From the NCBI GenBank assembly GCA_036495095.1, contig DASXNK010000107.1, forward strand, positions 11,042 to 75,041: a DNA stretch of 64,000 nucleotides, read 5' to 3'. Both the position numbers and the translations under genes were made by a program. Each line of letters begins with the position of its first letter. The first letter of the stretch is position 1. This document shows positions 35,918-42,739 of this stretch, in pieces. The stretch comes from Candidatus Dormiibacterota bacterium. GTDB taxonomy: Bacteria; Chloroflexota; Dormibacteria; Aeolococcales; Aeolococcaceae. The notes beneath the pieces were generated by a model. That model had not been told where the DNA came from, ran no database searches, and saw nothing but the letters and a program-made list of their open reading frames with translations.

Positions 35918-38900
35918 ATGATCCGCGAGCTCGTCGCGCTGAGCCTCAAGTTCCGCGTCCTCGTCGTCGGCGTGGCCGTCGTGGTCATGGGCGTCGGAGT
36001 GTTCCAGCTCCGCAGCGCGTCGGTGGACGCGCTCCCCGAGTTCGCGCCGCCCACGGTCACCGTGCAGGCCGAGGCGAGCGGCCTGTCCGCCGCCGAGGTG
36101 GAGCAGTACGTCACCACCGGCCTCGAGCAGGACCTGCTCAACGGGGTTCCCTGGCTCGATCACATGGAGTCGAACTCCTCGGCCGGGCTGGTGCGGGTCG
36201 ACCTCGTGTTCAAGCCCGGCACCGACCCGCTGAAGGCGCGGCAGGCGGTGCAGGAGCGCCTCACCCAGGCGTACGTGCTTCCCCAGGTCGGCACGCCGCC
36301 GACGATGCTCCAGCCGCTGTCCTCGACCAGCCGGGTGATGATGGTCGGCCTGTCGTCGAAGGACCTCTCCCTCACCGACCTGTCGGTCCTGGCGCGCTGG
36401 AAGATCAAGCCGCGGCTCACCGGCATCCCCGGGGTGGCCAACGTGAGCATCTGGGGCCAGCGCGACCGCCAGCTCCAGGTGCAGGTCGATCCGGACAAGC
36501 TCCGCCAGAACGGCGTGACCCTGAACCAGGTGATCAGCACCGCCGGCAACGCGCTGTTCGTGTCGCCGCTGAACTTCCTCCAGGCGTCGACGCCCGGGAC
36601 CGGCGGCTTCGTCGACACCTCCACCCAGCGGCTGGCGATCCAGCACGTGCTGCCCGTGACCACCGCCAAGAACCTCTCCTCGGTGACCATCGAGGACACC
36701 ACCGGCAAGTCGCTCACCCTCGGTGACGTGGCCTCCGTGGTCGAGGACCACCAGCCCTACCTGATCGGCGACGCGGTCCTGCACAACGGCCCCGGCCTGA
36801 GGCTGGTGATCCAGAAGTTCCCGGAGGCGAGCACCCAGCAGGTGACCAGGGGCGTGCAGGACGCCCTCGCCGCGCTCCGTCCCGGCCTGTCCGGCGTCGC
36901 CATCGACACCGGCGTCTACCAGGCGCAGTCGTTCGTCGACACCGCGCTCCACGACCTCGGCGTGGTCGGGCTGGTGAGCCTGGCCATGTTCGTGCTCGTG
37001 GTCGGGCTGCTCCTCCTCTCCTGGCGGCGGGCGGTGATCACCGTCACCGCCGCGCTGCTGTCCCTCGTGGCCGCCGCCTACGTGCTCTACCTGCGCGGCA
37101 GCACCTTCAACCTCATGGTGCTGGGTGGCCTGGCGATGGCCCTGGGCGTGGTCGTCGACGACGCCGTCGCCGAGCTCGGCGCGGTCCGCCGCAGGCTGCG
37201 CGAGCACCGTGCCTCGGGGGCCTCCACCTCCATCGCCACGGTCATCGCCGAGGCGTCGGGCGCGGTGCGCGGCCCGCTCCTCTACGGGACCCTGGTGGCC
37301 CTGCTGGTGCCGCTCCCGCTCCTCTTCCTCGACGGGGTGGCGGGGTCGTTCACCCGGCCGATCGTCCTCTCGTACGCGATCGCGGTGGCGGTCTCGACGG
37401 TGGTGGCGCTCGCGGTCACCCCCGCCCTGGCCTCGCTGCTGCTCGGCGGCGCGAGCGACGACCGGCCCGGCCCGGGGCTCCGCGCCGCCCACCGCGTCTT
37501 CGACGTCACCGTGGCGCGGCTCATCGGCCAGCCCCGCGCGGCCTACGCGATGGTCGCGCTGCTGCTCGCCGCCGGGCTGGCGGTGGTCCCGCAGCTCACC
37601 ACCCGCGCCGCGCTGCCCACCCCGCAGGACCGCAACGTGCTGGTTCGCTGGCAGGCCGTGCCCGGCACCTCGCTGGCCGAGATGGACCGGATCACCGGCG
37701 CCGCCTCCGCGGAGCTGCGCCACCTGTCCGGGGTGCGCGACGTCGGCGCCCACGTGGGCCGCGCGATCGCCTCCGACGAGGTCGTCGACGTCAACGCCGG
37801 CGAGATGTGGGTCAGCCTCAACGACACCGCCGACTACGACGCCACCCTGGCGGCGGTGCGCCGCGTCCTCCGCGGCTATCCCGGCCTGGCGAGCACGATC
37901 GAGTCGTACACGCAGGACCGTGTCGACGCCGTCACCGCCGACGCGGGGACGGGCAGCGACCTGGCGGTGCGGGTGTACGGCACCGACCTGGCCACGCTGA
38001 AGAGCACCGCGCAGGAGATGAGCCACCGGGTCGCCAGGGTGAACGGCGTGGTCCAGCCCAAGGTGCTGGAGCAGCCGGAGCAGCCCACCCTCGAGGTGAA
38101 GGTCGACCTCGACGCGGCCCAGAAGTACGGGATGGCCCCGGGCGACGTGCGCCGCGCCGCCTCCACCTTCTTCGCCGGCACCCTGGTCGGGAACCTGTAC
38201 CAGGACCAGCGGATCTTCGACGTGGTGGTGTGGAGCACGCCGTCGACGCGGTACGCCCCCGCCAACCTCGCCGATCTCATGGTCGACACCCCCGCCGGCC
38301 CGCAGGTGCGGCTCGGGGACGTCGCCAGTGTGAAGGTGGTGCCCTATCCGACCCAGCTCCTCCACGACGCCGACTCGCGCTACGTGGAGATCGACGCGCA
38401 GATCGGCGGCCGGGACACCGGCGCGGTGCTGAACGACGTGCGCCGCCAGGTGGCGGCGATGCCGATGCCGCTCGAGTATCACGCGGAGGTGTTCTCCCAG
38501 CTGGCCCAGCAGCAGGGCCAGGACCGGACCATGCTCGGCCTCGCCGCCGGCACCGCGATCGTCATCTTCCTGCTGCTGCAGGCGGCGTTCGGCAGCTGGC
38601 GGCTGGCGACGCTGGCCTCGCTGCTGCTGCCGCTGTCGCTGGTCGGCGGCATTGCGGGCAACCTCCTCGCCGGCGGTGAGCTCTCGCTCGCCGCGATGCT
38701 GGGCCTGGTCACGGTGCTGGGCCTGACGGCGCGCCACATCGTGGTGCTGGTCTGCGGGTACCTGGGTCTCGAGGCGGCGGAGGGATTCGTCGACCGCGGC
38801 GCCGCGGTGCGGCGTGTCACCCGCGACCGGGTCGGCCCCATCCTGCTCACCGCGGCCGCGACGGCGGCGGTGTTCGTCCCGGTGCTGGTGGCGGGAAGCC

Positions 38901-39106
38901 GCCCCGGCACCGAGGTCCTGTACCCGATGGCAGCCGTGGTCCTGGGTGGCCTGGTCAGCTCGACGCTGGTCGCCCTGGTGGTGGTGCCGTCGCTGTATCT
39001 GCGCTTCGCACCCGCGTTGACGCTGACCGGCAGGGGGACCAGTCGGGTCCGCCTGCGGCCGCGTGGCGAACGGGTCGTCACGAGCTCGCCAATGGGGGAA
39101 GGTTGA
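35918..39106 (+). CDS. RND efflux permease, CzcA/CusA (HME)-like, copy 1
   Basis: 1062 aa. N-terminal [34 protein letters not shown] matches the heavy-metal-efflux RND family. 12-TM architecture with two large loops. Confidence 0.85.
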   Translation: [1062 protein letters not shown]

Positions 39107-42500: not shown

Positions 42501-42739
42501 GGGAGCGGCTCTCGCCGATCCTGATGACCTCGCTGGCGACGGGCCTCGCCGTTGTGCCCCTGGTGGTGCTCGGCGCCCGGCCCGGATACGAGATCGAGTA
42601 CCCGCTGGCGGTGGTCATCATCGGCGGGCTGCTGACCTCGACGCTGCTCAACCTGTTCCTGGTGCCCTCCCTCTACCTGCGTTTCGGCAGGCGCCGCGAG
42701 GGAAGCCCGCGGGGATGGCGACTGCGTCGCAATCCCTGA
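39578..42739 (+). CDS. RND efflux permease, CzcA/CusA (HME)-like, copy 2
   Basis: 1053 aa, paralogous to copy 1 ([34 protein letters not shown]). Confidence 0.85.
   Translation: [1053 protein letters not shown]

Follow-up and report, generated by a model that had tools for sequence, protein, structure and literature searches.

How a pump from the RND superfamily (resistance-nodulation-division) might operate when the only adaptor encoded with its permeases is a lipoprotein of 157 residues is the question raised by a gene cluster of a Candidatus Dormiibacterota bacterium. The cluster lies within a 64,000-nucleotide stretch of contig DASXNK010000107.1 (assembly GCA_036495095.1), referred to below as the window. 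It comprises genes for two permeases, RND1 and RND2, which flank the gene for the lipoprotein (termed the stub), and a further gene encoding a secreted protein, D4 (Table 1). A first-pass annotation had described two tandem RND genes around the lipoprotein gene, and this layout was confirmed, all three open reading frames (ORFs) being on the forward strand with coding-type G+C content at third codon positions (GC3 of 0.88–0.96) and both permeases matching the Pfam family ACR_tran; the conserved fourth gene had been overlooked. Here it is argued that the cluster probably, though with considerable room for doubt, encodes a conserved four-gene envelope export module as opposed to two independent pumps, comprising paired RND permeases, an adaptor stub consisting of the membrane-proximal (MP) domain only, and the secreted D4 protein.

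The annotation had claimed translational linkage also, and both junctions read exactly as it described. The RND1 stop codon (TGA, 39104–39106) is separated by one base (g) from the ATG of the stub gene at 39108, and an ATGA overlap (39578–39581) joins the stub gene to that for RND2. These junction sequences indicate that translation of the three genes is linked, and translational coupling of the cassette genes was observed in relatives as well.

Domain content of the stub lipoprotein

The lipoprotein had been regarded initially as an adaptor remnant with a barrel-like or MP-like segment. The comparisons described below retain the MP domain from that description and discard the beta-barrel, which is absent according to the family model, the structural model and the matches to full-length adaptors. 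Residues 1–22 of the stub comprise a signal peptide and lipobox (L-T-G-C), the Cys22 of which is shared by 90% or more of 86 homologues. These are followed by a disordered tether of about 15 residues (approximately 23–37), an N-terminal MP segment (38–67), a linker (68–85) and a C-terminal MP segment (86–151) with a conserved ELLGAE tail. The N-terminal strand segment, the C-terminal ∼70 residues and the lipid anchor that together define a membrane-proximal domain of this type are all present.

The NCBIfam model TIGR01730 aligned with the last ∼60 residues of the stub over model positions 251–313 of 322 (E = 7.7e-7), the score of 28.4 bits falling short of the cut-off of 94.9 for a full adaptor. 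Searches of Pfam with the stub and its 86 homologues at a threshold of E ≤ 0.01 revealed no adaptor domain, the sole contact being a match of one member to CusB_dom_1 at 0.0097. Since Pfam is blind to the relationship, homology is demonstrated instead by NCBIfam, by a profile search of PDB sequences, by fold comparison and by a two-block match to full-length proteins. In the PDB search, conducted with a profile of the 86 homologues, 17 of 19 matches were membrane-fusion proteins (MFPs), with TriAB the best (6.2e-7) and MexJ, TMexC, AcrA, CusB, ZneB and MexA among the others; the SilB construct 5a4g was matched over profile positions 45–137. An AlphaFold2 model of the stub (predicted local distance difference test score, pLDDT, of 80.8 overall and above 90 at residues ∼38–67 and ∼86–150) contains the MP fold only, with an 18-residue linker at the point where the remaining adaptor domains would insert. 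Comparison of the predicted structure with known adaptors, which the first-pass annotation had proposed as a check, gave a consistent outcome: all of the proteins ranked 1–32 by Foldseek against the PDB were MFPs, including CusB, AcrA, MexA, BesA, ZneB, TriAB and SilB 5a4g, with local superpositions of 1.1–3.4 Å root mean square deviation over 59–83 columns.

Full-length MFPs encoded on plasmids of Sphingomonas and Hymenobacter (326 and 419 aa) match the stub in two blocks, between which their hairpin, lipoyl and barrel domains fall. The N-terminal strand block is 53% identical between the stub and the Hymenobacter adaptor, and the C-terminal block is 42–45% identical to the plasmid adaptors, down to an AAEL(F/L)G(A/T)E tail (AAELFGTEFG). 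In the Hymenobacter protein some 265 residues separate the blocks and include, as read from the sequence, a clear coiled-coil hairpin. Because the full-length plasmid adaptors match both ends of the stub, the latter would appear to be an internally deleted adaptor. The stub family extends to 791 representatives (clusters at 50% identity) at E ≤ 1e-30; among the best 150 of these, about 128 are short and about 22 are of 220–525 aa, with the match split in two stretches. A relative of 270 aa retains an apparent barrel-type segment on inspection of its sequence, and represents an intermediate form. Collectively, the sequence and model comparisons indicate that the stub is a membrane-fusion protein of its own lineage that has been cut to the MP domain, without hairpin, lipoyl or barrel domains.

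Two metagenome-assembled genomes contain a second, diverged stub copy (41–44% identity; L012, 6483–6944, and L047, 8001–8456) with no RND gene within ∼6–8 kb. The same genomes hold close relatives of the cassette (L004 and L005). These lone copies raise the possibility that the MP-only protein has further partners.

The paired RND permeases

RND1 and RND2 are RND superfamily permeases by length (∼1000 aa) and by full-length matches to ACR_tran (PF00873), which extend from profile position 2 to 1019–1020 of 1021 and score 566.5 and 729.5 bits, respectively, against a cut-off of 28. The two proteins share 42–43% identity. The best PDB match of RND1 is ZneA (E = 2.6e-77), and RND2 matches ZneA (E = 9.6e-107) and CusA (E = 1.5e-91). 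TIGR00914 (CusA/CzcA) is the best NCBIfam model for both, but the respective scores of 409 and 573.6 bits lie below the curated cut-off of 701.45, so that the designation of heavy-metal efflux (HME) type, which both pumps had been given, serves as a nearest-neighbour label as opposed to a statement of membership. What survives of that designation is the kinship with ZneA and CusA; the sub-threshold scores, the missing methionine triad and the AcrB-like relay described below all depart from it.

A neighbour-joining tree, computed without support values, was constructed from 126 cassette permeases together with AcrB, CusA, MdtB and MdtC. Genes located upstream of the stub formed one clade (66 of 68) and those located downstream another (56 of 57); of the reference proteins, CusA branched nearest to the cassette pair. 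In broad terms the two subtrees agree, and they group taxa in similar ways. Mean identity is 0.50 within the upstream type, 0.62 within the downstream type and 0.47 between the two, and either type has a mean identity of 0.26–0.28 to CusA and 0.22–0.24 to AcrB. The identities and the matching subtrees imply an old duplication, after which the pair was inherited or transferred as a unit, and the comparison as a whole indicates that RND1 and RND2 belong to two old paralogue clades derived from one ancient duplication. The features by which a heteromultimeric permease is recognised at gene level, namely neighbouring paralogues, an old duplication and retention of both copies, are all present, and the duplication is independent of that which gave rise to MdtBC.

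Inspection of relay and metal-site residues, a further check proposed at the outset, located a complete relay in both copies (D414/D415, R939 and R971 in RND1; D422/D423, R945 and R977 in RND2) and the CusA methionine triad in neither. Both proteins have counterparts of AcrB D407, D408, R971 and T978, and Arg replaces AcrB K940 in 58/58 downstream-type and 62/65 upstream-type sequences. From these alignments the transmembrane relay, Asp-Asp/Arg/Arg/Thr, is judged to be AcrB-like, save that Lys940 gives way to Arg. In the columns of CusA relay residues E939 and K984 there are Arg and Ile, and the combination typical of monovalent HME pumps (D405/E939/K984 and methionines) is not found. The Met triad (M573/M623/M672) and Met pairs of CusA are absent from both permease types, the triad columns being occupied by H, F and E in RND2 and by R, A and A in RND1. 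The phmmer alignment places RND2 residues E629, E637, E675 and E679 opposite ZneA D602, E610, D654 and D658, which, with ZneA E136, we take to be Zn-site residues. Of what are presumably the acidic positions of CzcA transmembrane helix 4 (D402/D408/E415), RND2 lacks the first Asp and has counterparts of the other two, and RND1 has a counterpart of D408 only.

Conservation differs between the two types. Among 58 downstream-type sequences, the D407 and D408 equivalents are each present in all 58 and R971 in 57; of the porter positions, E679 is present in 58, H585, E629, E637 and E675 in 57 each, and F635 in 53. All six of these porter residues are found in RND2, and RND1 has R577, E621, A627, E629, D667 and A671 at the positions that are invariant in the downstream type. 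Among 65 upstream-type sequences, the D407 equivalent is lost in nine and the porter positions are variable, the E629 column containing Q in 35, K in 10, E in five and D in five. Of the two copies RND2 is thus conserved more strongly, and it is probably the one that selects the substrate.

A heteromeric pump is favoured because the ancient pair has been kept together and its two copies are conserved asymmetrically. The suggestion of such a pump in the first-pass annotation consequently gains support at the level of sequence, with the pair recurring in ∼75 of 80 loci. The complete relay in both window paralogues could instead be accommodated by two separate homotrimeric pumps of different specificities, co-expressed and with one small lipoprotein in common, and close single-RND relatives in ordinary tripartite operons imply that the downstream type is presumably capable of forming a homotrimer. 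This arrangement seems unlikely, given the fixed order of upstream type, stub and downstream type, the tight coupling across phyla and the congruent subtrees; in addition, loss of the D407 equivalent and drift of the porter residues in the upstream type would be unexpected for an autonomous pump.

Occurrence of the cassette in monoderm and diderm bacteria

When one genome per species was scanned, 211 stretches encoding stub relatives were returned, and the best 80 of these loci were examined. The order RND–stub–RND was observed in ∼75 of them, and was observed also in Nocardioides iriomotensis, an ANGP1 bin and metagenome contigs. Most carriers belong to the Actinomycetota, Chloroflexota and Dormibacterota, and those in culture include Kribbella alba, Actinocrispum wychmicini, Cryobacterium gelidum, Catellatospora bangladeshensis and N. 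iriomotensis. An equally short adaptor is encoded in diderm carriers, comprising Rhodoferax (several bins), Thiohalocapsa (a complete chromosome), Alphaproteobacteria, Lewinellaceae, Saprospiraceae (an 8-Mb contig), Acidobacteriota, Gemmatimonadota, Rokubacteria, Pirellulales (Planctomycetota) and KSB1.

The first-pass annotation had attributed the reduced adaptor to a monoderm host, and Dormibacteraeota have been regarded as belonging to a monoderm clade (bioRxiv 10.1101/2021.05.31.446380). Since diderms have the identical cassette, absence of an outer membrane is not the general reason for the stub. The attribution fails on the occurrence of the cassette in Rhodoferax, Thiohalocapsa, Bacteroidota, Acidobacteriota, Gemmatimonadota, Planctomycetota and Rokubacteria, and the idea of a monoderm-only trait was abandoned once the genome scan had revealed these carriers. 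The same evidence bears on a broader proposal, in which an HME pump was fitted to a monoderm envelope and its adaptor shrank for want of an outer membrane. ZneA and CusA as the nearest solved structures, TIGR00914 as the best NCBIfam model, the regard of the host phylum as monoderm, the origin of the majority of loci in Actinomycetota, Chloroflexota and Dormibacterota, and the lack of an adjoining MFP or outer-membrane factor (OMF) all accord with it. Nevertheless, the proposal is improbable in view of the identical architecture and short adaptor in many diderms, the Thiohalocapsa chromosome and the 8-Mb Saprospiraceae contig among them; moreover, the HME cut-off and signature residues are lacking, and the conserved fourth gene is left unaccounted for.

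No adaptor or TolC-like gene adjoins the RND1–stub–RND2–D4 genes in the window, i.e. the OMF gene that would be expected alongside a tripartite pump is missing, and the earlier statement that neither a full-length MFP nor an OMF is encoded next to the cluster is borne out by the neighbouring genes. A phmmer search of all window ORFs with E. coli AcrA, CusB, MdtA and CusC gave no matches, although this test is of low sensitivity because the stub adaptor itself went undetected too. At 18 diderm loci with 97 flanking ORFs, neither TolC/OEP nor HlyD was among the 25 most frequent Pfam families, a list that could omit families matched by a single ORF; an OMF encoded at a distance is conceivable.

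At several diderm loci, outer-membrane barrels of kinds other than TolC are instead encoded next to the cassette. A Porin_5 protein adjoins it in three cases (L027, 6916–8130; L055, 11835–13118; L056, 11806–13062), a TonB-dependent-receptor-like barrel is encoded downstream in two (L058 and L081), and two Rhodoferax loci encode a protein of ∼550 aa with a weak alginate-export-like match (L048, 2739–4385; L075, 2661–4331), a close homologue of which occurs in L060. Expanded modules, with an extra stub copy after the downstream RND gene, were seen at L016, L017, L034, L043 and L076, the full order in L017 being RND, stub, RND, RND, stub. Two gammaproteobacterial bins have altered arrangements: stub, RND, ABC ATPase, a 555-aa ABC-2 membrane-protein homologue and RND in one (L029, 7836–16419), and stub, a 587-aa protein with a weak PBP-like match, RND and RND in the other (L077, 833–9218). 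ABC ATPase neighbours, present at 16 loci, were considered as a specific link and dismissed, as ABC ATPases cross-match generically. In both permease subtrees the Dormibacterota clade of the window is nested among Actinomycetota (L011, L020, L021, L026, L031, L036 and L040), and this nested position, for which the tree gives no support values, suggests transfer of the module between the two phyla.

Tripartite relatives encoded on plasmids

Plasmids of Hymenobacter, Sphingomonas and Methylomonas carry operons comprising a TolC-family gene, a full adaptor gene (314–419 aa) and one RND gene. The single RND proteins of Hymenobacter and Sphingomonas are 46–47% identical to RND2 and 39–41% identical to RND1, and carry all of the diagnostic residues of the downstream type. 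Next to these tripartite operons there is neither a D4 homologue nor an upstream-type paralogue. The operons are flanked by genes for a response regulator and sensor kinase, those of Hymenobacter and Sphingomonas also by PAP2 phosphatase genes, and that of the Hymenobacter monticola plasmid by PepSY-like genes and chrA too. PAP2 phosphatases have a link to lead resistance.

The simplest history for the cassette would begin with a homotrimeric tripartite pump of the RND2-like subfamily as ancestor. The permease gene would then have been duplicated, with divergence of the upstream copy, the adaptor would have shed its central domains, and the link to TolC would have disappeared.

The fourth gene

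A Sec-type signal peptide is visible in the D4 protein, which also has conserved cysteines and, at numerous positions, invariant Asp, Glu, His or Trp. No match to D4 was found in Pfam, NCBIfam or PDB sequences, and one of 62 members of the D4 family touches DUF3108_like weakly (E = 0.35). With tblastn, over 50 of the loci retrieved were seen to contain a D4 homologue. Linkage was counted in the 41 loci that have both permeases intact and enough flanking sequence: a homologue is present in 33, and is on the same strand and directly downstream of the cassette in 24 and directly upstream in six. Conversely, of three members of the D4 family drawn at random, two adjoin a cassette. At least 1175 clusters make up the family, and none bears a name beyond 'hypothetical'. 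Some of the loci without a detectable D4 homologue, Thiohalocapsa for one, encode a DUF3108-like/PepSY protein instead.

In the AlphaFold2 model of D4 (pLDDT 88.5) an antiparallel sheet, long and curved, precedes a helix at the C-terminus. The leading Foldseek matches are BF2203, which has a YmcC-like fold (E = 5.6e-6), and BDI_3050 (E about 6e-6), with LolA3, VioE, EPDR1, RseB and DUF1329 at lower ranks. As the TM-scores are just 0.2–0.48, assignment to a LolA/YmcC/DUF3108-like fold is tentative.

A hairpin that starts 25 nt past the RND2 stop codon lies between the RND2 and D4 genes (−36.7 kcal/mol, z = −4.0, with none of 200 shuffled sequences folding as well). It resembles a terminator or attenuator. 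A terminator consensus scan of 35000–44500 flagged nothing, the loop and inner stems of this hairpin exceeding the rules of the scan. The possibility that D4 is an unrelated gene, separated from RND2 by the hairpin, was considered and set aside given its conserved position in 30 of the 41 complete loci.

A ∼580–620-aa PG_binding_1 protein recurs beside the D4 gene at several loci (for example L052, 13909–15642, and the P0223 contig), in one case with an ABC ATPase alongside. Some members of the D4 family (P0141, P0190, P0207 and P0223) are of 491–536 aa, about twice the usual length, and P0141, the one whose sequence was inspected, is a tandem duplication of the D4 domain in a single polypeptide.

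Proposed mechanism and substrate

The MP domain of full-length adaptors contacts the porter domain of the RND permease. In the mechanism envisaged here, RND1 and RND2 would assemble as a heterotrimer, in which RND2, whose proton relay is intact and whose periplasmic cleft contains the invariant His/Glu cluster, would select and move the substrate, and RND1, having diverged, would be its partner in a structural or regulatory capacity. The lipid-anchored stub would sit on the porter domains and stabilise or activate the assembly; both the heterotrimer and the binding of stub to permease are predicted from the genes. Without hairpin, lipoyl and barrel domains the stub should be unable to reach or open an outer-membrane channel, and the substrate would accordingly be released outside the cytoplasmic membrane, into the wall zone of the presumably monoderm Dormibacterota host and into the periplasm of diderms. 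D4 may deliver or receive the substrate.

A cation is the probable substrate, and among cations a divalent metal is the likeliest, although this is the weakest step of the scheme and is offered as a tentative guess. The lean towards a metal stems from the nearest solved relatives (ZneA and CusA), from the invariant His/Glu cluster, which falls at the site used by CusA and ZneA and whose Glu residues align with Zn-site positions of ZneA, and from the plasmid contexts of the canonical relatives.

Several observations weigh against this scheme or parts of it. Two co-expressed homotrimers are possible in place of the heterotrimer, and co-transcription of RND2 and D4 is uncertain because of the strong hairpin between them. 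With regard to metal as the substrate, the relay is AcrB-like and unlike that of CzcA or CusA, an invariant Arg of RND2 aligns with ZneA E136, and the weak fold matches of D4 include binders of lipids or hydrophobes. Finally, the barrels that adjoin some diderm loci may provide an outer-membrane route of another kind.

Export of a lipid or hydrophobe is a serious rival reading. Here, the RND pair would extract an envelope molecule that a LolA-like D4 shuttles onward, in diderms to the adjoining porin-like barrels, in a manner likened to the Lol system and to the pairing of mycobacterial LprG/LppX with a transporter. The weak fold matches of D4 to LolA3, RseB, EPDR1, DUF1329 and YmcC-like proteins, the AcrB-like Asp-Asp relay and the recurring neighbours (Porin_5, TonB-dependent-like barrels, ABC-2 transporters and PG_binding_1 proteins) are in keeping with this idea. 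It is nonetheless given a low probability: TM-scores of D4 to LolA-like folds are low, the residues that are invariant in D4 are chiefly Asp, Glu, His, Cys and Trp and not those of a hydrophobic lining, the invariant cleft residues of RND2 are charged, and the canonical relatives reside in plasmid contexts resembling metal resistance.

Relation to known systems

The closest parallel to the paired permeases of the export module is MdtABC of E. coli, together with MuxABC and SmeJK. Both groups have an adjoining pair of paralogous RND permeases from an ancient duplication, with identity within the pair of about 42–50%, and in both the two copies are unequally conserved; the MdtBC duplication is described in PMC10872679 and PMC7015380. 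However, the cassette permeases are only 21–24% identical to MdtB/MdtC and branch with CusA in the neighbour-joining tree, and the cassette differs further in having a small gene between the permeases, a stub in place of full-length MdtA and no evident TolC partner. In a 2024 survey of HME, NFE and HAE-1 pumps, from which Gram-positive phyla were excluded, tandem permeases were found only in HAE-1 clade B (MdtBC) (PMC10872679). As far as was found, the module represents a second, independent case of anciently paired RND permeases after the MdtBC group.

ZneCAB, CzcCBA and CusCFBA include the best-scoring solved relatives of the cassette permeases and, as with CusF, an extra periplasmic protein is encoded alongside. 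The cassette differs from these systems in lacking the Met triad and pairs, a full adaptor and an OMF, and in having Arg at the position of AcrB K940/CusA E939; D4 is unrelated to CusF. With respect to the stub, BesA of Borrelia is a natural adaptor without a hairpin, and demonstrates that loss of domains occurs naturally (PMC4446572), but BesA has retained lipoyl, barrel and MP domains and functions together with an outer-membrane factor. Most of the stub can be aligned with the SilB construct 5a4g, an engineered N-terminus plus MP domain; this construct is man-made, whereas the MP-only form of the stub occurs in nature and predominates in a large family.

Small membrane-anchored accessory proteins that make no bridge to a channel in the outer membrane are known for other RND permeases, for example MmpS (mycobacterial MmpL) and AcrZ and YajC (AcrB). 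The likeness of these to the stub, a small accessory gene beside an RND permease, is one of functional analogy only. MmpS, AcrZ and YajC were not matched in any of the searches, the stub matching almost exclusively the MP domains of MFPs.

The literature searched contained no description of a natural MP-only adaptor, of a paired-RND module outside MdtBC or of DUF3108 with an RND permease. The parts of the module appear to be of known kinds throughout (RND permease, adaptor domain and possibly a LolA-like fold); it is the combination and the domain reduction that appear to be new. Whether the module stands for an undescribed and widespread class of RND exporter without an OMF, with an obligate heterotrimer, an MP-only adaptor and a carrier of a new family in both monoderms and diderms, is more doubtful, and the idea is put forward as a conjecture that may hold but for which we would not claim a high likelihood. 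If correct, it would mean that the MP domain of the adaptor has a transporter-directed function independent of outer-membrane bridging. The effects of adaptors on the RND transporter itself, beyond bridging to TolC, have been hard to separate experimentally, as summarised in reviews (e.g. PMC4446572). A natural MP-only adaptor with full-length sister adaptors and single-RND sister pumps permits a direct comparison, and a second case of paired permeases permits the recurrence of division of labour between paralogues to be examined. Experiments are feasible because cultured strains carry the module. In addition, two unannotated families, the stub and secreted D4, gain a likely role.

Layout of the locus and neighbouring genes

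The coordinates of the module and of features around it are collected in Table 1. The G+C content of the window is ∼74%. The stub and D4 are each 100% identical to a protein listed by NCBI for a Candidatus Dormibacteraeota metagenome bin. The ribosome-binding-like stretch preceding RND1 is located in a 144-nt divergent intergenic region common to RND1 and the glycosyltransferase gene, and on the 3' side of the D4 gene there is a convergent PhzF-like gene. A consensus scan of 35000–44500 revealed no sigma-70-type promoter, and no Rfam family was matched across the whole window.

Table 1. Positions of the module genes and associated features in the window.
Feature	Position	Strand	Basis
EryCIII/MGT-type glycosyltransferase gene, upstream neighbour	34358–35773	opposite	–
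Purine-rich, ribosome-binding-like stretch GGAGAGGAGGGGGA, 8 nt 5' of RND1 ATG	35896–35909	+	Direct sequence reading
RND1, upstream-type RND permease paralogue, 1062 aa	35918–39106	+	ACR_tran, E = 1.3e-169
Stub adaptor, 157-aa lipoprotein, MP domain only	39108–39581	+	TIGR01730, fold, PDB profile search
RND2, downstream-type RND permease paralogue, 1053 aa	39578–42739	+	ACR_tran, E = 7.3e-219
Hairpin, 3' arm running into UUUU, terminator/attenuator-like	42764–42812	+	RNA fold
D4, secreted Cys-containing protein, 313 aa	42864–43805	+	Conserved linkage; AlphaFold2 and Foldseek

Elsewhere in the window, two secreted paralogues rich in Gly, Ser and Asn are encoded at 28643–29167 (− strand) and 31882–32454 (+ strand). 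One of these was run against Pfam and matched no family. The two proteins share 52% identity and a near-identical core, CG(V/L)LSGI(A/G)SNDLNNILGGQNQLLNGT(N/S)LLNN(L/I)FVP(V/I)LSPG, and between their genes lie a MaoC-like and a CoA-transferase gene.

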